Shown here: positions 2,854 to 13,145 of the stretch, piece by piece
Numbering within the stretch: the stretch's first letter is position 1
Layout of the letters: each line of letters begins with the position of its first letter
DNA from: a virus
DNA: 34,578 bases
Virus genome (UHGV): UHGV-0107442
Strand: one strand, 5' to 3'
Notes under the pieces: generated by a model
Told to the model about the DNA's origin: nothing
Seen by the model: the letters and a program-made list of their open reading frames with translations, nothing else
Databases searched by the model: none
Position numbers and translations under genes: made by a program

Positions 2854-3057
2854 ATGACACCTAACATTTCAATTACTCTGAATACACCACATGTCACAAT
2901 CGAACGTTATAGCGAACTGACTGGCCTTTCTATTGATACGATTAACGACATGTTGGCTGATGGCCGACTACCTCGTCATCGTCTTCGTAAAGACAAAAAA
3001 CGTGAAAAGGTAATGATTAACCTGGCTGCTCTGACTGTTGATGCTTTGTCTGCTTAA
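2854..3057 (+). CDS. apl: Apl/Cox-like small DNA-binding protein (excisionase / lysogenic-promoter repressor)
   Basis: 67-aa ORF, first gene rightward of the switch, divergent from cI; position and size match 186 apl / P2 cox. ATG 2854 with AAGGA 10 nt upstream. Confidence 0.65.
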
Positions 3058-3067
3058 TAGACGTCTA

Positions 3068-3105
3068 TTTTCGCAATAAGACGCTGAGTTCGATTTTGCG
3101 ATAAG
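3068..3105. promoter_or_regulatory. Repeat pair between apl and cII (TTTTCGCAATAAG / TTTTGCGATAAG; inverted core TCGCAA...TTGCGA); candidate CII-type activator site for an establishment promoter
   Basis: Read directly. Direct near-repeats about 26 bp apart with an embedded inverted hexamer pair (3071..3076 and 3096..3101). In 186 the CII-dependent promoter pE lies in this relative position. Speculative. Confidence 0.25.
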
Positions 3106-4922: not shown

Positions 4923-5776
4923 GCACCATCCTGAAATGGGCGGGAAATAAAACCGCCATAATGTCCGAACTGAAAAAGCATCTTCCTGCTGGCCCGCGAC
5001 TGGTTGAACCTTTCGCGGGTTCCTGTGCAGTGATGATGGAGACGGATTACCCCAGCTATCTTGTTGCGGATATTAATCCTGATTTAATCAACCTCTATAA
5101 AAAGGTTGCTGCTGATTGTGAGGCGTTTATATCTCGTGCCAGAGCTTTATTTGAGGAAGCAAACAGGGAGGTGGCTTATTACAACATAAGGCAGGAGTTT
5201 AATTACTCCACTGAAATTACTGATTTCATGAAAGCGGTATATTTTCTGTATCTCAATCGTCATGGTTACCGTGGGTTATGTCGCTATAACAAGAGCGGGT
5301 ATTTCAACATTCCCTACGGTAATTATAAAAATCCGTATTTCCCTGAAAAAGAAATTCGCGCATTTGCAGAGAAAGCCCAGCGGGCAACGTTTATCTGCGC
5401 CAGCTTTGATGAAACGCTGGCGATGTTGAAGGCGGGGGATGTGGTGTATTGCGATCCGCCGTATGACGGTACGTTTTCCGGCTATCACACTGATGGTTTC
5501 ACTGAAGATGACCAGTATCACCTGGCATCCGTTCTTGAACATCGGTCATCAGAAGGACATCCGGTCATTGTTTCTAACAGTGACACATCCCTGATCCGTT
5601 CGCTGTATCGCAATTTTACTCACCACTACATCAAGGCAAAACGCAGCATCGGTGTGGCAGCTGGTGATAGTAAATCTGCAACAGAAATCATTGCTGTTTC
5701 CGGGGCGCGCTGCTGGGTGGGATTTGATCCTTCGCGTGGCGTAGATAGTTCTGCTGTGTACGAGGTGCGTGTATGA
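4919..5776 (+). CDS. Dam-type DNA adenine methyltransferase (GATC-class N6-MTase), orphan
   Basis: ORF 4859..5776 begins with TTG; ATG at 4919 follows GGAGG at 8-nt spacing. Has the DPPY catalytic motif (VYCDPPY) and an N-terminal AdoMet region (ILKWAGNK...EPFAGSCAV). No adjacent restriction endonuclease gene. Confidence 0.85.
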
Positions 5777-8166
5777 GTCATGACGATATGAGCAACTCTA
5801 GCGGCTTTAACGAGGCCGCTGCATCATTTTCATGGAACGGCCCGAAAAAGGCCATTAACCCTTATCTGGACCCGGCGGAATTTGCGCCGGAGTCTGCACT
5901 TTCAAACCTGATCACTCTGTATGCTGCCGATAACGAGCAGGAACAACTGCGCCGCGAGGCACTGAGTGAGCAGGTCTGGGAGCGTTATTTCTTTAATGAA
6001 TCCCGTGATCCTGTCCAGCGCGAAATGGAGCAGGATAAGCTCATTAGCCGGGCAAAGCTGGCGCATGAGCAGCAGCGTTTTAATCCAGACATGGTCATTC
6101 TGGCTGACGTCAACGCCCAGCCTTCCCATATCAGCAAGCCGCTGATGCAACGTATTGAATACTTCAGCAGTCTGGGCAGGCCAAAGGCTTATTCCCGCTA
6201 TTTGCGTGAGACGATTAAGCCATGTCTGGAAAGACTGGAGCATGTACGCGACAGTCAGCTATCCACTTCTTTTCGCTTTATGGCAAGCCATGAAGGGCTG
6301 GACGGCCTGCTGATCCTGCCTGAAATGAGTCAGGATCAGGTAAAACGCCTGTCCACCCTGGTAGCAGCGCATATGAGCATGTGTCTTGAGGTCGCTTGTG
6401 GTGATTTGTATGCCACCGATGACGTTAAGCCAGAAGAAATCCGCAAGACATGGGAAAAGGTGGCGGCGGAAACCCTGCGACTGGATGTCATACCGCCTGC
6501 GTTTGAGCAACTCCGCAGGAAAAGAAACCGCCGTAAACCCGTGCCCTATGAACTTATTCCGGGTTCGCTGGCGCGTATGTTGTGCGCCGACTGGTGGTAT
6601 CGGAAATTATGGAAGATGCGTAGCGAATGGCGGGAAGAGCAGTTGCGTGCTGTTTGCCTGGTCAGCAAAAAAGCATCTCCCTATGTCAGCTATGAAGCCG
6701 TGATGCATAAACGTGAGCAGCGCCGTAAGTCGCTGGAGTTTTTCCGTTCTCATGAACTGGTGAACGAAGACGGCGACACGCTGGATATGGAAGACGTGGT
6801 AAACGCCAGCAGCAGCAACCCTGCGCATCGCCGCAATGAGATGATGGCCTGTGTTAAAGGTCTGGAGCTTATCGCGGAAATGCGCGGTGACTGCGCCGTT
6901 TTCTACACCATCACCTGTCCGTCACGTTTCCATTCCACGCTAAATAACGGCAGGCCAAACCCGACCTGGACCAACGCGACAGTAAGACAAAGCAGCGATT
7001 ATCTGGTCGGCATGTTTGCTGCATTTCGTAAGGCTATGCACAAAGCCGGGTTGCGCTGGTATGGCGTGCGGGTGGCTGAGCCGCATCATGACGGCACAGT
7101 TCACTGGCACCTGTTGTGTTTCATGCGCAAAAAAGACCGCCGCGCCATTACTGCATTGTTGCGTAAGTTTGCCATCCGTGAAGACCGCGAGGAGCTGGGC
7201 AATAACACGGGGCCACGCTTTAAGTCTGAGCTGATAAACCCGCGCAAAGGAACGCCGACAAGCTACATTGCGAAATATATCAGTAAGAATATTGACGGGC
7301 GTGGTCTGGCTGGCGAGATCAGTAAGGAAACGGGTAAATCCCTGCGTGATAACGCTGAATACGTTAATGCCTGGGCGTCTCTGCATCGTGTTCAGCAATT
7401 CCGCTTCTTTGGCATTCCGGGGCGTCAGGCTTACCGTGAACTGCGATTGCTGGCTGGTCAGGCGGCAAGGCAACAGGGGGACAAAAAAGCAGGTGCGCCG
7501 GTACTGGATAACCCGCGCCTTGATGCAATCCTGGCTGCTGCTGATGCTGGTTGTTTTGCCACTTACATCATGAAGCAGGGCGGCGTACTGGTTCCCCGCA
7601 AATATCACCTCATCAGAACTGCTTATGAAATTAACGAAGAGCCGACCGCCTATGGCGATCACGGCATTCGTATTTATGGCATCTGGTCACCCATTGCAGA
7701 GGGCAAGATCTGCACTCATGCAGTGAAGTGGAAAATGGTTCGTAAAGCCGTTGACGTTCAGGAGGCGGTAGCCGACCAGGGCGCTTGCGCCCCTTGGACT
7801 CGTGGCAATAACTGTCCCCCTGTTGAAAATATGAACAAATCAGGGGGGGATTTACCCGATATTAAAACCATGGATGAGAAGGAGCTGCAGGAATATCTCC
7901 ACAACATGGGCCAGAAGGAACGGCGGGAGCTGACAGCCAGGTTGAGACTGGTAAAACCGAAGCGAAAAAAAGCATACATACAGAGTATTTCGGAGCAGCA
8001 GCGCCTGCAGCTTGAGGCAGAACTGACTGCCAGAGGGTTTGAGGGTAGTGTATCTGAGATTGATTTGCTTCTGCGTGGCGGCAGCATTCCATCCGGTGCC
8101 GGTTTACGTATTTTTTACCGTAAACAGAGGCTGCAGGAAGATGACAAATGGCGTCGATGGTACTAA
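5773..8166 (+). CDS. A: Rolling-circle replication initiation protein (P2 gpA family)
   Basis: 797 aa; size and position match P2 A (761 aa). Contains the region [13 protein letters not shown] (HUH-like) and downstream YIAKYISK with candidate catalytic tyrosines. Start overlaps the Dam stop. Confidence 0.9.
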
Positions 8167-8235: not shown

Positions 8236-8278
8236 TTTACATTTTTTCTTTCCTACTATACTGTTTGTAAAAACAGTG
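8236..8278 (+). promoter_or_regulatory. SOS-regulated promoter: -35 TTTACA / -10 TATACT overlapping a LexA box
   Basis: TACTGTTTGTAAAAACAGTG (8259..8278) matches the LexA consensus TACTGT-N8-ACAGTA in the CTGT-N8-ACAG core. -35 at 8236..8241 and -10 at 8257..8262 (15-bp spacer, suboptimal). Lies 47 bp upstream of the ATG at 8325. Confidence 0.55.
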
Positions 8279-8324
8279 GGTATATGTACAGTATTTGTGT
8301 ATCCGTGTAATGATAGGAGGGAAG

Positions 8325-8513
8325 ATGCAGGACTATCTTTTGGAGTCATTGAAGCTCCAGCGTATTGATTTTTTTATCAAGCTTGTAGCGGCTAGTGAGT
8401 GCAGCGACGAAGAAAAGCGGCTGGCTATCCAGTGGGTGTCCGAACTGACAGATGAGTTGATGGCGAAAATTCGCAGCCATGAATACAGCCGATCAATGGA
8501 CGTTACCAGTTAA
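8325..8513 (+). CDS. Small SOS-box-controlled protein (62 aa); candidate Tum-like antirepressor module
   Basis: ATG 8325 follows AGGAGGG. Function inferred only from context: 186 places its LexA-controlled antirepressor tum in the equivalent position. Confidence 0.45.
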   Translation: MQDYLLESLKLQRIDFFIKLVAASECSDEEKRLAIQWVSELTDELMAKIRSHEYSRSMDVTS

Positions 8514-8525
8514 AGGGAAATCTGT

Positions 8526-8747
8526 ATGCGCATTGAAATAATGATCGATAAAGAGCAGAAGATTAGCCAGGCCACACTGGAAGCCCTTGAATCCGAGCTC
8601 TACCGTAATTTGCGCCCTCTGTATCCCAAAACAGCAATTCGTATCCGTAAGGGCAGCGCCAATGGTGTTGAACTGAGCGGGTTAAAACTGGATGAAGACA
8701 AAAAGCGAGTAATGGAAATAATGCAGCAGGTTACATTAAAACGTTGA
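8526..8747 (+). CDS. DinI-family protein
   Basis: 73 aa; the MRIEIMI start and overall pattern resemble E. coli DinI (MRIEVTI...). SD AGGGAA upstream; downstream of the LexA box. Confidence 0.8.
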   Translation: MRIEIMIDKEQKISQATLEALESELYRNLRPLYPKTAIRIRKGSANGVELSGLKLDEDKKRVMEIMQQVTLKR

Positions 8748-8908
8748 TCCCGATAGGATCCTATCAGAGGGAACAAGGTTGAACAACGAGTGAAGCGAGG
8801 CGTTAGGTATGGCGGTCATGATCTTCAATGGCCGCCAGCTTTGTACTGTTTGCTCAACCAGCGGGTGCAACATACTTTTCTAACTCGAATATAAGATAAG
8901 ATTTTTTA

Positions 8909-8937
8909 TTTACAACACTTGGCTTGTTCCTTAGTAT
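8909..8937 (+). promoter_or_regulatory. Candidate sigma70 promoter for the ATPase-HNH operon
   Basis: TTTACA (8909..8914), 17-bp spacer, TAGTAT (8932..8937), in AT-rich DNA about 45 bp upstream of the ATG at 8983. Confidence 0.4.
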
Positions 8938-8982
8938 CTAGCTAATCCTGAATGTGGGTTAGTGGAAATTACAAGGAAATAT

Positions 8983-10164
8983 ATGAAACTGACTGAGCTA
9001 ACTATAAACGGTATCGGGGGGATAAAGTCCCTGTACGTAAAATTTAGGCCTGACATGAATATTATATGTGGGCCTAACGGAGTTGGAAAATCCACACTCT
9101 TGCTTGCTGCCTCCTTTCCTTTTCTTCATGGATACACTAATAGAATAAAACGCAATGTCACTTCTGAAACAGGAAGTGTTAGTCTAATAATAGAAGATAA
9201 TTCTGTTAACTTTAATTCAGTATTAGATGTTAACGTTCATTTGCCTACAGAAACAATTCACAACTTTAATAATAACGGATTTGATAAGAGGAAACTAATA
9301 AAATTTGAAATATTACGTAACTTTGATTATAAACATCTTGAGGCGTTGAATGCAGATAAATCACTATCCGATGATGCTGTTTCGCAACAGATTAATTTAG
9401 GTGTCAATTTACATGATATCAAGGATTGGTTTGCTAAGAGGGATTTGTTTGAAAAAGTAGATAATGGTTACGGTCCTAATACGATAAAAAATATACATCT
9501 TGCAAGGGAGTGTATATCAATTTTAAACCCTCAGTTTTCTTACAATCGCGTCGATCCTAAATCTTACGATATTTTTGTAAATACCCCGACCGGGGTAATA
9601 TGGTATGAATATCTGTCCTCGGGATTCAAATCATGTATGAGTCTCCTTCTCGGTATTATTAAAGAGATCGAGCTTCGTTATCCGGAGAAAGATATTTACG
9701 CCCAAGAATTTGATGGAGTGATTCTTATCGATGAAATTGAGCTTCATTTGCATCCTGAGTGGCAGGCAAGAATCACTGAAGCCCTTACGACAACATTTCC
9801 ATCAGCACAATTTATTGTCACAACTCACAGCCCACATGTAGTACAGAATGCAAAACCACATCAGATCATTGCGTTAGTACCAGATAATGATGGCACAGTG
9901 AGAGTAAAAGAACTTCCTGAAAATGGCTTGGGTTATTCTGCCTGGACAGTTGAAGAGGTTTTGTTAGATGTAATGGGGATGGAAAGCACTCTCAGTAGAA
10001 AACTACAAGAACTACTTGATAATTTCGAACGTTTTGTTGATGAAGAAAATTTCGACAAGGCGAAAGAAATTTATGATTATTTGGATATGGCATTGCATCA
10101 AAACAGTATTCTTCGTAAATCTCTTAAAATAAGCCTGATGTCAATTCGAGAGAGAGAAGAGTAA
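8983..10164 (+). CDS. ABC/SMC-like P-loop ATPase, Septu PtuA-like
   Basis: ORF 8962..10164 begins with GTG; ATG at 8983 follows AGGAA. Walker A GPNGVGKST, Walker B VILIDEIELHLHP, then TTHSP. 393 aa; the stop abuts the start of the HNH gene. About 33% GC versus about 52% in the phage backbone. Confidence 0.8.
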   Translation: MKLTELTINGIGGIKSLYVKFRPDMNIICGPNGVGKSTLLLAASFPFLHGYTNRIKRNVTSETGSVSLIIEDNSVNFNSVLDVNVHLPTETIHNFNNNGFDKRKLIKFEILRNFDYKHLEALNADKSLSDDAVSQQINLGVNLHDIKDWFAKRDLFEKVDNGYGPNTIKNIHLARECISILNPQFSYNRVDPKSYDIFVNTPTGVIWYEYLSSGFKSCMSLLLGIIKEIELRYPEKDIYAQEFDGVILIDEIELHLHPEWQARITEALTTTFPSAQFIVTTHSPHVVQNAKPHQIIALVPDNDGTVRVKELPENGLGYSAWTVEEVLLDVMGMESTLSRKLQELLDNFERFVDEENFDKAKEIYDYLDMALHQNSILRKSLKISLMSIREREE

Positions 10165-10165
10165 A

Positions 10166-10912
10166 ATGATTAAGCTTGAACGGAACTTTATTCCTGATTT
10201 TTTTACTCGTGTTGATCTTCTATCTTTAACTCAGGAGTTTAAAGATAATGGAACATCTGTTTGGCATCATCCGGAAGTAAAATCGGCATGTCTAAAATTA
10301 AGTAATGGCAAATGTGCATTTTGTGAGGTCAAGCTTGAAGAGGCTAGCACCTATAATGAAATTGAGCATTTTAAGGATAAAAAAAATTTCCCTGATGATG
10401 TTATTAGATGGGAAAATCTCCTTCCTTCATGCCGTCACTGTAATGGTTCAAAACAACGCCATAATGTTGTACTCAATCCTATAATAAATCCATGCAACGA
10501 TTTACCGTCAGAACACCTTTATATGATAGGGTATCGTATTAAAGGTAAAACTGATTTAGGTAAAACAACAGTGGATGTTTTAAACTTTAATCACAGGGAG
10601 CACAAGTTTATACCGCGTTGTAAAGCAGGGGAACTTATAGATAGCAGTATTGATGACGCAATAGAAAAACTTAATTGGTTTAATGAGAATCCAAGTACTA
10701 GACGTAAAAACATTCTTATGAATCTAGTCGAGGCAATATTAGGTGAGTGTCAGAAAACATCTCCCTTTTCTGCAGTATCAGCAACAATGCTTCATCGTTC
10801 AGTCGAATATTCTTATCTGAAAGAAACCATGCAGATGCAAGGATTATGGTCAGATTATATGCAGGAACTTCATGATGAATCTTTGAGCCTGACGTTACCG
10901 TCAATTCGCTAG
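10166..10912 (+). CDS. HNH endonuclease, Septu PtuB-like
   Basis: 248 aa with CAFCE...EIEHFKDKKNFPDDVIRWENLLPSCRHCNGSK (CxxC...H...N...CxxC HNH core). ATG 10166 is 1 nt after the ATPase stop. Confidence 0.8.
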   Translation: MIKLERNFIPDFFTRVDLLSLTQEFKDNGTSVWHHPEVKSACLKLSNGKCAFCEVKLEEASTYNEIEHFKDKKNFPDDVIRWENLLPSCRHCNGSKQRHNVVLNPIINPCNDLPSEHLYMIGYRIKGKTDLGKTTVDVLNFNHREHKFIPRCKAGELIDSSIDDAIEKLNWFNENPSTRRKNILMNLVEAILGECQKTSPFSAVSATMLHRSVEYSYLKETMQMQGLWSDYMQELHDESLSLTLPSIR

Positions 10913-10974: not shown

Positions 10975-11257
10975 ATGAAGACGATAAGCAGATTGGGCCC
11001 GAGTGAGTATCTCGGGAAAATAAACCATTTACATACTATGTTTAACGTTCAAAGCACACCTCAAGCTTTCTTAGTTCTTCTGCTTCGATATATAAACGGT
11101 CATTTGGTTACGAACATTCACTTCTCCCCTAAGTGCATGGCTATGCTGCATGAGATCGCATGACCGTTTGAGGAGCGTTGTAACGCAGGCGTGCCAGTTG
11201 TGACGGACTTTTTCGTATGTTATGCACCTGCATGAAAACCATTGCACAAAGCGGGCA

Positions 11258-11284
11258 GGCGTGGCGGGGATACGAGCGCGCGCT
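11258..11284. other. cos-like sequence (P2/186-type cohesive-end site)
   Basis: GGCGTGGCGGGGA at 11258..11270 matches the first 13 nt of the 186 cohesive end (GGCGTGGCGGGGAAAGCAT as remembered) and 12 of 13 of P2. The following GCGCGCT also resembles sequence next to P2 cos. The last 6 nt of the 19-mer differ, so this is not certain. Confidence 0.45.
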
Positions 11285-11378
11285 AACTCATAAATCCTAG
11301 ATTATTAGTGGATTTATCTCATTGAAATGTGCACTATTCCCAGCATTGAGTTGTACCAGATGTCTTTATGGAGGGACT

Positions 11379-13145
11379 GTGGCTTTTGTAACTGATATTC
11401 GGCTTGAAGATAATGCTATTGCTGCACCTGCGACAGCACAGGTTATGGCTCAGAGGCTAGGATCTGTATTACGTAAGAGATATGAAGAATTCATCCATAA
11501 AAGAGAGTGTGCACCAGGCCAAGCAGACTATGATGTAAAAATGGCTAGCAGGGCTTTAGCTGCATTCACTATGTATCAGTTAGGATGTGTGGATGATAAG
11601 TATGCAGGGGAGTCTGTATGTGATAGTAGTGAAGATGGTGGTATAGATGGAATAGCAATCAACCATAACGAAAAAATCGTTGTTGTTGTTCAATCAAAAT
11701 TTCACCAATCGGGAAACGGCACTTGGACAAGAGCCGATTTTATGTGTTTTAAGGATGCTTGTGAGAAGCTACAAAGTGAAAGATACGAATTATTTGATTC
11801 CATATTGCAAAATAAAAGCGGGGAAATAAGTGCGGCTTTAAGTAGTTTTGAATACAAGTTCATCTTTGCGATGGCGCATACAGGTAAAAAAGGTGCTGCA
11901 GAGGAAATATTAAATGATATGCGGGAATGGCAATATCAATTAAACGCTGCAGCTTTTACACCTGAGGATGAGCCTAAAGAGAACTGGGGATTTCAGGTTC
12001 ATTTAATATCCTCTGAAGATATGATGCATTGGTTACAGAATGGCTCTCGAAATCAAATTGATCTTAACAGGGTTGAAATTGAGCGTTTTGGATTTTTGAA
12101 TGAACCATATCAAGCTTTTTACGGGGCTATTAGTGGTGATCAAGTTGCAGAATGGTGGGAAGAGCATGGTGCTCGATTATTTACAAAAAACATAAGGAAT
12201 ATGCTTGGTAAAACAGAAGTGAATGAGGAAATAAAAAAGACAGCTATAGATAATCCTGATATGTTTTGGTTTTATAATAATGGGATTACTGTACTGGTTA
12301 AGGAGGTTGTTCCTCATAGACGAAACGCAGCTCCTAATATAGAGAGAGGGATTTTTGATTTTCGTGATGTAAGTGTCATTAATGGTGCACAAACAGTCAG
12401 TAGTATTGGCGCATGTAAAGATGCGCTTGGTGAAAACATATATAGACTCAAAGTGCCAGCCAGATTCATTGTTATAGATGATGATACTGATAATTTAACT
12501 GCAAATGCGATTACAAAAGCTAACAATTTCCAAAATAGAGTATTGGGAAGAGATTTTGCGTCGCAGCAGGCAGATCAACATAGATTGGCAAGGGAGTTAG
12601 TGCTTGAAGGATATCAATATCAGTTACTAAGAACAGATGAAGATCATTCACAGACAAATACGAAAGTCATTGACTTGGATGAGGCGCTCAATGCACTCGC
12701 ATGTTTAAGTAAAAATAATACGGTTGTATCGACACTAAAATCAAATCGCGGTAGGTTTTTTGAAAATTTTGAAGGCTCTCTATATAAAACTATTTTCAAT
12801 CCAAGATTAAGTGGTTTAAAACTTATCAATACTGTTCTACATTTTAGAGTTATAGATAAGTTGATCGGTAAAACATTACTATCAGTAGATAAAACTACCC
12901 ATAGTCGCAAGCATTTAATTATTACGCATGGTAATAGATACTATGCGTCTGTGCTATTGAGCAACGTTTCTGGGATACATAATAGCTCAGAAATTCTTGT
13001 TCCAGATGAAAAAAATCTTTCAGAAGAATTAAGTGCATTAATTCAACGTGCTGAAGAGTACATTGAAGATAATTACCCGAATGCCTATCCGGCAAGATTT
13101 TTTGCAAATCCAACGAAAATACAAGAGTTATACGATAATGTTTAA
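11379..13145 (+). CDS. AIPR-family (abortive-infection phage-resistance) protein with an N-terminal PD-(D/E)xK-like nuclease motif
   Basis: ORF 11322..13145 begins with TTG. Start uncertain: GTG 11379 (GGAGGG 3 nt upstream) or ATG 11445. N-terminal DSSEDGGIDGIAI...VVVVQSKF resembles Mrr/restriction-endonuclease-like D...QxK. Central WFYNNGITVLV...VINGAQT matches the AIPR hallmark as remembered. AT-rich. Confidence 0.7.
   Translation: MAFVTDIRLEDNAIAAPATAQVMAQRLGSVLRKRYEEFIHKRECAPGQADYDVKMASRALAAFTMYQLGCVDDKYAGESVCDSSEDGGIDGIAINHNEKIVVVVQSKFHQSGNGTWTRADFMCFKDACEKLQSERYELFDSILQNKSGEISAALSSFEYKFIFAMAHTGKKGAAEEILNDMREWQYQLNAAAFTPEDEPKENWGFQVHLISSEDMMHWLQNGSRNQIDLNRVEIERFGFLNEPYQAFYGAISGDQVAEWWEEHGARLFTKNIRNMLGKTEVNEEIKKTAIDNPDMFWFYNNGITVLVKEVVPHRRNAAPNIERGIFDFRDVSVINGAQTVSSIGACKDALGENIYRLKVPARFIVIDDDTDNLTANAITKANNFQNRVLGRDFASQQADQHRLARELVLEGYQYQLLRTDEDHSQTNTKVIDLDEALNALACLSKNNTVVSTLKSNRGRFFENFEGSLYKTIFNPRLSGLKLINTVLHFRVIDKLIGKTLLSVDKTTHSRKHLIITHGNRYYASVLLSNVSGIHNSSEILVPDEKNLSEELSALIQRAEEYIEDNYPNAYPARFFANPTKIQELYDNV

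Follow-up and report, generated by a model that had tools for sequence, protein, structure and literature searches.

The stretch of DNA analysed here (34,578 nucleotides, hereafter the window) contains, between a dinI-like gene and a Septu defence operon, an element of about 67 nt that is read on the sense strand and consists of two adjacent hairpins, which we call H1 and H2. To judge from comparative sequence analysis, this is a widely conserved and apparently undescribed structure that closes the tum/dinI operon, inducible by DNA damage, of 186-like P2 phages. We give a probability of roughly 0.6 to the explanation favoured here as a whole, which blends structure and homology with a mechanism acting in RNA; the structural and homology part taken separately is highly probable, while the specific RNA mechanism, argued by analogy, is tentative and falls somewhat short of even odds. 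Neither the 186 record nor the PSP3 record annotates the element, and we found no description of it in the literature on the box sequence, on the 186 SOS operon or on the P2 tin-old ('TO') region, an older description from work on 186 or P2 being possible. A transcriptome paper on Salmonella BTP5 reports high tum expression and annotates no RNA in the corresponding 3' region.

Its gene content marks the window as a P2-family prophage, integrated and of the 186/PSP3 type. The genes are arranged in the order integrase, gene A (5773-8166), LexA box, tumA-like ORF, DinI/TumB-like ORF, Septu, cos-like sequence, AIPR/AbiU-like gene and portal gene Q, the last being encoded on the opposite strand (table 1). 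The homologous gene pair is annotated as TumA/TumB in the PSP3 record, and the module also matches tum of 186, whose record (NC_001317) lists a p95 promoter, a LexA site, tum, a partial terminator t95a, orf97 and a 'p95 transcript terminator' t95b. By this comparison, the LexA-box-like site and the promoter region upstream of tumA are where the SOS (p95-type) operon closed by H1-H2 is predicted to begin. Another CTGT-N8-ACAG match, located at 8619-8634 inside the dinI coding sequence, is probably due to chance (two such matches in the window versus 0.6 expected). The Septu system comprises a full-length PtuA ATPase followed by a full-length PtuB HNH nuclease, as identified with PADLOC; this cargo is low in GC, with the GC content dropping at its leader.

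Table 1. Positions of the features discussed in the text and the evidence on which each assignment is based.
Feature	Position	Strand	Basis
LexA-box-like site, CTGT-N8-ACAG	8261..8276	+	pattern match; p95/LexA annotation of 186 at the equivalent place
tumA-like ORF, 62 aa, phrog_698	8325..8513	+	TumA/TumB annotation of PSP3
DinI-like/TumB-like gene	8526..8747	+	Pfam DinI, 1.3e-17; 3' end altered by a 20-nt deletion
Hairpin H1	8740..8780	+	folding; covariation; covariance-model match of 60.6 bits, E ~5e-12
Palindrome	8752..8765	+	apical stem of H1 (GAUAG/CUAUC) plus loop (GAUC)
Conserved box GGTTGAACAACGAGnnnnGCGAGGCGTTAG (3' end of H1, H2 and AG tail)	8777..8806	+	0 matches expected by chance
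Hairpin H2	8782..8804	+	compensatory changes in L159, L147 and L143; 93% pairwise identity
GC-rich hairpin, probable intrinsic terminator of the SOS operon	8810..8837	+	fold; terminator scan; position equal to that of 186 t95b
Interrupted U-rich tail GCUUUGUACUGUUUGC	8838..8853	+	sequence; terminator scan
Sigma-70-like promoter match, TTTACA-17-TAGTAT	8909..8937	+	consensus match only; located before ptuA in the AT-rich cargo leader
Septu pair (PtuA 8983-10164, PtuB 10166-10912)	8983..10912	+	PADLOC, PtuA 1.1e-151 and PtuB 1.6e-95

The region had been flagged in a first-pass annotation for a perfect palindrome just after the dinI-like stop, and both parts of that description are correct: GATAGGATCCTATC is palindromic over all of its 14 bp and begins 5 nt past the TGA. 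Taken alone, the palindrome is not significant, because the number found in the window equals the chance expectation (two perfect 14-bp palindromes, at 3056 and 8752, versus 2.3 in first-order Markov simulations, 91% of which produce at least one). It is, however, the tip of the longer hairpin H1, whose lower stem in the window is formed by AACGTTGATCCC pairing with GGGAACAAGGTT, with two mismatches and an AGA bulge. This longer hairpin, the 30-nt box and the truncation of the dinI-like gene at its 3' end had not been part of the earlier annotation. The other perfect 14-mer, AATAGACGTCTATT at 3056-3069, comes directly behind the stop of a small apl/cox-like ORF, with TTTTCG next to it, and might represent a small terminator or a further hairpin adjacent to a stop codon.

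The evidence for H1 comes from an alignment of 104 distinct copies, in which RNAalifold and an explicit counting of pairs yield two hairpins. H1 is built of 17 pairs, 14 of which show changes on both sides, and 94% of the cells are paired, compared to only 25-47% when the partner columns are slid as a control; no shuffle reached the observed covariation. At its base AAC-G-YY pairs with RR-G-GTT, and TT/AA switches to CC/GG, so the bases adjacent to the stop codon pair with the box and H1 spans from the stop codon to the first four bases of the box. Among the cells departing from Watson-Crick pairing, G-U (165) far exceeds A-C (13), which indicates that the folding strand is the sense strand of tum/dinI; an excess of this kind would also fit folded single-stranded DNA, where G-T pairs occur. 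A terminator on the minus strand serving a convergent cargo was considered as well and is ruled out by the same 165:13 asymmetry. Of the 104 distinct copies examined, 90 have a recognizable upstream ORF, and in 71 of these the stop codon is separated from H1 by just 0-4 nt, whatever the upstream gene is, be it dinI/tumB, tumA alone, orf97, orf37 or yet others.

The window carries a short and imperfect version of H1 (-15 kcal/mol, z = -0.9), and the covariance model accordingly gives this copy 60 bits versus 75-95 for typical copies. The 3' end of the dinI-like gene (8726-8747) has, on sequence comparison with loci L118 and L178, suffered a deletion of 20 nt, the resulting frameshift having replaced the eight C-terminal amino acids WEDDSWLH of the DinI-like protein with TLKR. 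The ancestral stop codon, TAA at 8737-8739, abuts the base of H1, and the TGA now in use (8745-8747) lies inside the 5' strand of the hairpin; a mechanism depending on stop-codon proximity may therefore work differently in the window. The intergenic region 8735-8985 is shared in identical form by only four E. coli genomes, and four likewise cover most of 8300-9100, a stretch over which E. coli EC50 (NZ_CP056073) is identical to the window.

H2 is separated from H1 by a single unpaired base, G8781. Its stem is composed of AAC/GUU, a 2x2 internal loop, a C-G pair, a tandem G-A/A-G, a G-C pair and finally U-G (or C-G) closing a GAA triloop; the 3' strand contains GAGG, and the tail ends with GTTAG at 8806. 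That H2 is invariant among the 104 aligned copies is a consequence of the search pattern, so the unbiased set is the smaller one anchored on gpA. Outside the pattern, H2 is supported by changes from G-C to A-U (L159), from C-G to U-A (L147) and from A-C to C-G (L143), and in the first copies of PSP3-type phages UC stands in place of GA, so that Watson-Crick pairs (CTCGC...GCGAG) replace the tandem G-A. An alternative three-way fold, with AACGYY pairing to GGCGUU, has the lowest energy in 186; 77 of the 104 copies are compatible with it, and in the remaining 27 it is broken. Having only 69% of P3 paired and no double changes in P1, it is less well supported and was retained only as a conformer that may be specific to some lineages. 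Positions 8777-8791, which make up the 5' half of the box, are also 80% complementary to 8845-8859, enclosing the terminator hairpin; L178 has the same pairing, which in a transcript reading through the terminator would be in competition with H1 and H2. No match to Rfam 15 reaches the gathering score anywhere in the window, and a permissive scan of 8500-9000 (E up to 10) returns only the small nucleolar RNA snoR27 at E = 9. A small RNA with a conserved antisense target was dismissed, as a scan of 23 loci for 8-mer complements gave self-hits and scattered chance matches only.

The box of about 30 nt recurs in many Peduoviridae, including PSP3, Cartapus, SEN8 and phages of Yersinia and Klebsiella, and a scan with the exact pattern detects it in at least 120 IMG/VR contigs; within the window, a search for further copies of the box or the palindrome found none. 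All loci read share a common design, namely a stop codon, a hairpin of variable sequence and then the box GGTTGAACAACGAGnnnnGCGAGGCGTTAG. When the covariance model built from the 104 copies was run on 57 loci retrieved from species-representative genomes only by gpA similarity, the element was found in 27 of them, spread across Enterobacterales (Escherichia, Citrobacter, Enterobacter, the Klebsiella group, Pantoea, the Erwinia group, Tatumella, Serratia and Leclercia being among the carriers). Every gpA-anchored copy is on the gpA strand, 0.3-1.6 kb (330-1600 nt) after the gene. The presence of the element tracks that of tumA/dinI, with gpA-anchored loci devoid of tumA/dinI also devoid of the element, and P2 itself does not have it. 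Mean pairwise identity, calculated over 17 loci, is 93% for H2 with its flanking bases, 70% for H1, 80% for dinI overall and 63% for dinI third positions, which means that the H2 sequence is constrained more tightly than the coding region; H1 changes roughly as fast as synonymous sites do, yet its pairs are maintained. PSP3-type phages have two copies about 405 nt apart, flanking orf37 (2546-2627 and 2950-3032 in L002, that is, PSP3), and the same arrangement occurs in L037, L042, L060, L066, L086 and L099.

The element lies in 186 between orf97 and the annotated t95b and is thus transcribed there as the 3' end of the SOS mRNA, the experimental anchor for its transcription being the GenBank annotation of t95a and t95b in 186 only. 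The end of the 186 SOS operon (p95-tum-orf97-t95b) resembles that of the window in that a LexA-controlled tum/dinI module is placed downstream of gene A and in that the hairpin plus box, GGTTGAACAACGAGccccGCGAGGCGTTAG in 186, is followed a few nucleotides later by an intrinsic terminator. It differs in that the 186 element comes after orf97, with a separate t95a after tum, whereas the element of the window directly follows a split-off dinI, and the terminator hairpins of the two are unrelated in sequence.

The candidate terminator of the window had been recognized earlier as a GGCGG...CCGCC pair ahead of a T-containing stretch, and it is indeed there, GGCGG occupying 8811-8815 and CCGCC 8832-8836, with GCTTTGTACTGTTTGC following. 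The complete stem is TGGCGGTCAT/ATGGCCGCCA (8810-8819 and 8828-8837), which amounts to 10 bp, six of them G-C, enclosing an 8-nt loop; it hence has the GC-rich stem of at least 5 bp and the short loop of an intrinsic terminator. With -18.2 kcal/mol and z = -3.8 (none of 200 shuffles being as stable) it is the strongest local structure, and it is flagged by a consensus terminator scan, which returns two sites in 1.2 kb versus 0.8 expected. The U tract GCUUUGUACUGUUUGC passes the scan threshold (5 T in 8) but is interrupted, unlike the UUUUUUU of 186 t95b. The hairpin begins 3 nt past GTTAG and t95b 22 nt past the same box. The Leclercia locus L178, which has the same Septu cargo, keeps the stem, three C-to-U changes giving three G-U pairs, and L001 and L052 have an analogous hairpin-CTTTAT. 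The hairpin together with the GCTTTGT after it is also shared by L118, which then diverges into a different cargo, so the hairpin belongs to the backbone of the sublineage rather than to the cargo. The proposal that a weak terminator separates the SOS module from the cargo therefore gains support from position, matching that of 186 t95b, and from anatomy, and the hairpin at 8810-8837 is most likely the terminator of the SOS operon.

Sequence similarity among the phages stops right after GTTAG. Over 143 copies there are at least 55 unrelated downstream contexts, as opposed to 23 upstream ones. The gpA-gpQ interval is known as a defence hotspot of P2 phages from a study comprising 18,150 such loci (Rousset et al. 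2022, PMC9122126); no boundary element is described in the searchable text of that paper, which left the mechanism of exchange open. By sequence comparison, the element is the left edge of this hotspot, occupied by Septu in the window. Where the site is empty, GTTAG is followed by about 7 nt and then by the cos-proximal sequence GTGCATGTCTATGCCGCATGA; downstream of the element, such phages have two strong terminators, then cos and the convergent late genes. The window resumes the cos-proximal sequence at ~11128, which makes the Septu cargo an insert of ~2.3 kb starting after 8806. The element thus marks the start of the hypervariable gpA-gpQ hotspot to the nucleotide, and it may serve as a precise landmark for cargo limits in prophage annotation and as a candidate recombination anchor sequence. 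For the window itself, the implication is that the palindrome is not an operator, that the second hairpin is likely the SOS-operon terminator and that the Septu cargo begins after 8806. A sequence resembling cos, AAGCGGGCAGGCGTGGCGGGGATACGAG (cf. the right end of P2), is found at ~11245-11272, within 11128-11275, with repeated TGCATGA motifs ahead of it; from the position of this sequence the Septu genes lie to the left of cos. Two cargo blocks then flank the packaging site, Septu on its left and on its right, before Q, the AIPR/AbiU-like gene of 607 aa (11322-13145). An ORF of 50 codons or more begins no more than 9 nt after GTTAG in 35 of the 104 copies, and the GAGG of H2 there has the spacing from the start codon that suits a Shine-Dalgarno sequence. 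A 24-codon ORF at 8809-8883 in the window was discarded as a gene, its frame not being conserved in L118 because of indels.

As to function, the Tum antirepressor governs the induction of 186-type prophages, so that producing it leakily or in excess is costly, and a structure joined to the stop codon at the end of the SOS operon is a plausible, hitherto unrecognized layer of post-transcriptional control. In the mechanism that we tentatively propose, H1-H2, in which the LexA-controlled operon (tumA and the truncated dinI/tumB) ends, would act in the mRNA. H1, set against the stop codon, might hinder terminating ribosomes or block 3' exonucleases and might in this way set the output of the antirepressor operon, and H2 may hide the Shine-Dalgarno sequence of the next ORF in those phages, approximately one-third, in which an ORF immediately follows GTTAG. 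The hairpin at 8810-8837 with its U-rich tail would stop SOS-driven transcription from entering the Septu cargo, which has a promoter-like site of its own. As a side effect, the gpA-gpQ defence hotspot would have its left homology anchor in this conserved island.

An analogy for H1 is provided by the REP hairpins of E. coli, which are likewise stable extragenic or intercistronic hairpins located less than 16 nt after a stop codon. As summarized in PMC12306157, which cites Newbury et al. [quoted passage not shown] The position that defines the translational subclass of REPs, a hairpin within 15 nt of the stop, is taken by the 71 of 90 copies mentioned above, with their distances of 0-4 nt. The likeness is drawn from sequence features, and there are clear differences: H1-H2 belongs to another sequence family, has a second, invariant hairpin in H2 and occurs as one copy per prophage, whereas REPs number hundreds per genome. 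Many dispersed copies, typical of REPs, were not seen; the window has a single copy, and the significant gpA-anchored copies are all just downstream of gpA. A different parallel is offered by sib, the retroregulator of lambda, a hairpin for RNase III that lies downstream of int. Like sib, H1 is a long hairpin near the 3' end of a regulatory transcript of a temperate phage and could control the stability of the upstream message; unlike sib, to which it has no sequence relation, it has only ~17-18 pairs, with mismatches. Processing by RNase III, as in lambda sib, would be an equally open variant of the proposed mechanism.

Several alternatives to an element acting at the end of the SOS mRNA deserve consideration. 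One is that the palindrome is a protein-binding site, as had been suggested, with a dimeric protein recognizing it in duplex DNA, or that palindrome and hairpin are functionless chance features. The palindrome is indeed perfect and contains a BamHI site, and its abundance in the window is that expected by chance. We nevertheless regard this explanation as scarcely credible. Checking the related prophages, as the first-pass annotation had advised, shows that the structure is conserved and the palindromic sequence is not: already the closest relative, L178, has GATAAGAGCCTATC in its place, and in about 100 copies the position is taken by unrelated yet still pairing sequences. The palindrome occupies the homologous apex of a covarying hairpin that the covariance model retrieves in the window at the score given above. 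What is conserved is pairing that is strand-asymmetric, with G-U, and not sequence, and this points to a folded single strand instead of a duplex operator. A single strand of DNA might also be the folding molecule. P2-type rolling-circle replication displaces one strand, with the origin in gene A, and H1-H2 might form on this strand downstream as an ssi-like signal for priming or helicase loading in complementary-strand synthesis. The combination of a hairpin with an invariant tail is reminiscent of single-strand initiation signals of the G4 and phiX types; the strand-specific fold, the common orientation of all copies with gpA and their placement 0.3-1.6 kb downstream would fit, too. However, the element is missing from P2 and from roughly half of the loci with a closely related gpA (identity up to 88%), which means that replication driven by gpA does not need it; its presence follows tumA/dinI and not gpA, and the two copies flanking one small gene in PSP3-type phages also speak against this role. 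We therefore consider a replication signal improbable.

We assign an equally low likelihood to the element being a DNA recombination signal or cassette boundary by which gpA-gpQ cargo is swapped, in a manner reminiscent of the attC sites of integrons. The attC core has the form GTTRRRY, which is fitted by both GTTAGGT and GTTAGAC, and, like attC, the element follows the stop codon of a gene, has a sharp cassette-like boundary, contains imperfect inverted repeats and ends in a GTTRRRY-like GTTAGG. The conservation ending exactly at GTTAG, the great number of unrelated right-hand contexts, the different genes abutting the left edge with their stop codons at a fixed distance and the succession copy-orf37-copy in PSP3-type phages all agree with this idea. 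Yet the terminal AAC pairs with the proximal GGTT, as shown by the TT/AA to CC/GG covariation, and there is no end-to-end R''/R' pairing (RYYYAAC with GTTRRRY) involving GTTAG, the bases outside AAC and GTT not being complementary; the GGCGTT alternative lacks double changes, and 27 of 104 copies break it. It is the sense (top) strand that pairs better, no dedicated recombinase is associated (IntI is lacking, only the prophage integrase having been considered), and instead of arrays there is one copy per locus, the pairs of PSP3-type phages being the single exception. The G-U strand bias and the spacing of Shine-Dalgarno sequence and ATG fit RNA better, and a functional island beside a hotspot would passively give the same sharp boundary. 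Among explanations that also invoke RNA, H1-H2 might be a cis antiterminator like the put RNAs of HK022, which are two adjacent stem-loops separated by a single base and acting in cis in the phage transcript, so that polymerase initiating at the SOS promoter would read through terminators into the cargo. The two stem-loops with one unpaired base between them, one hairpin being highly conserved, and the position just upstream of terminators and cargo speak for it. Still, it is very unlikely, since the annotated end of the p95 transcript in 186 is t95b, 22 nt past the element, read-through would be harmful in empty-site phages with the two strong terminators, cos and convergent late genes that follow, and there is neither a match in Rfam nor sequence similarity to put. 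Somewhat less remote, and still unlikely, is a role of H1-H2 as the left gate of the P2 hotspot, either as a cargo-exchange signal or as an SOS-coupled RNA switch or processed small RNA, with H2 as the active part; as a switch, it would link prophage induction to the expression or silencing of the neighbouring defence cargo. An element closing the tum/dinI operon and acting in its mRNA is thus the reading that we prefer.

The sequences to the right of the element include some further noteworthy arrangements. A conserved downstream ORF of 86 aa corresponds to phrog_2100, a family of unknown function. In L011, L012, L020, L050 and L076, a perfect LexA box, ACTGTATGCATATACAGT, is located immediately right of the element and ahead of an ORF of the phrog_2100 type, which looks like a second SOS-controlled unit beside the first. 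In L017, L048 and L136, an ORF starting with MGFPSPAQDYVE, which we take to resemble a UmuD-type N-terminus, directly follows GTTAG.
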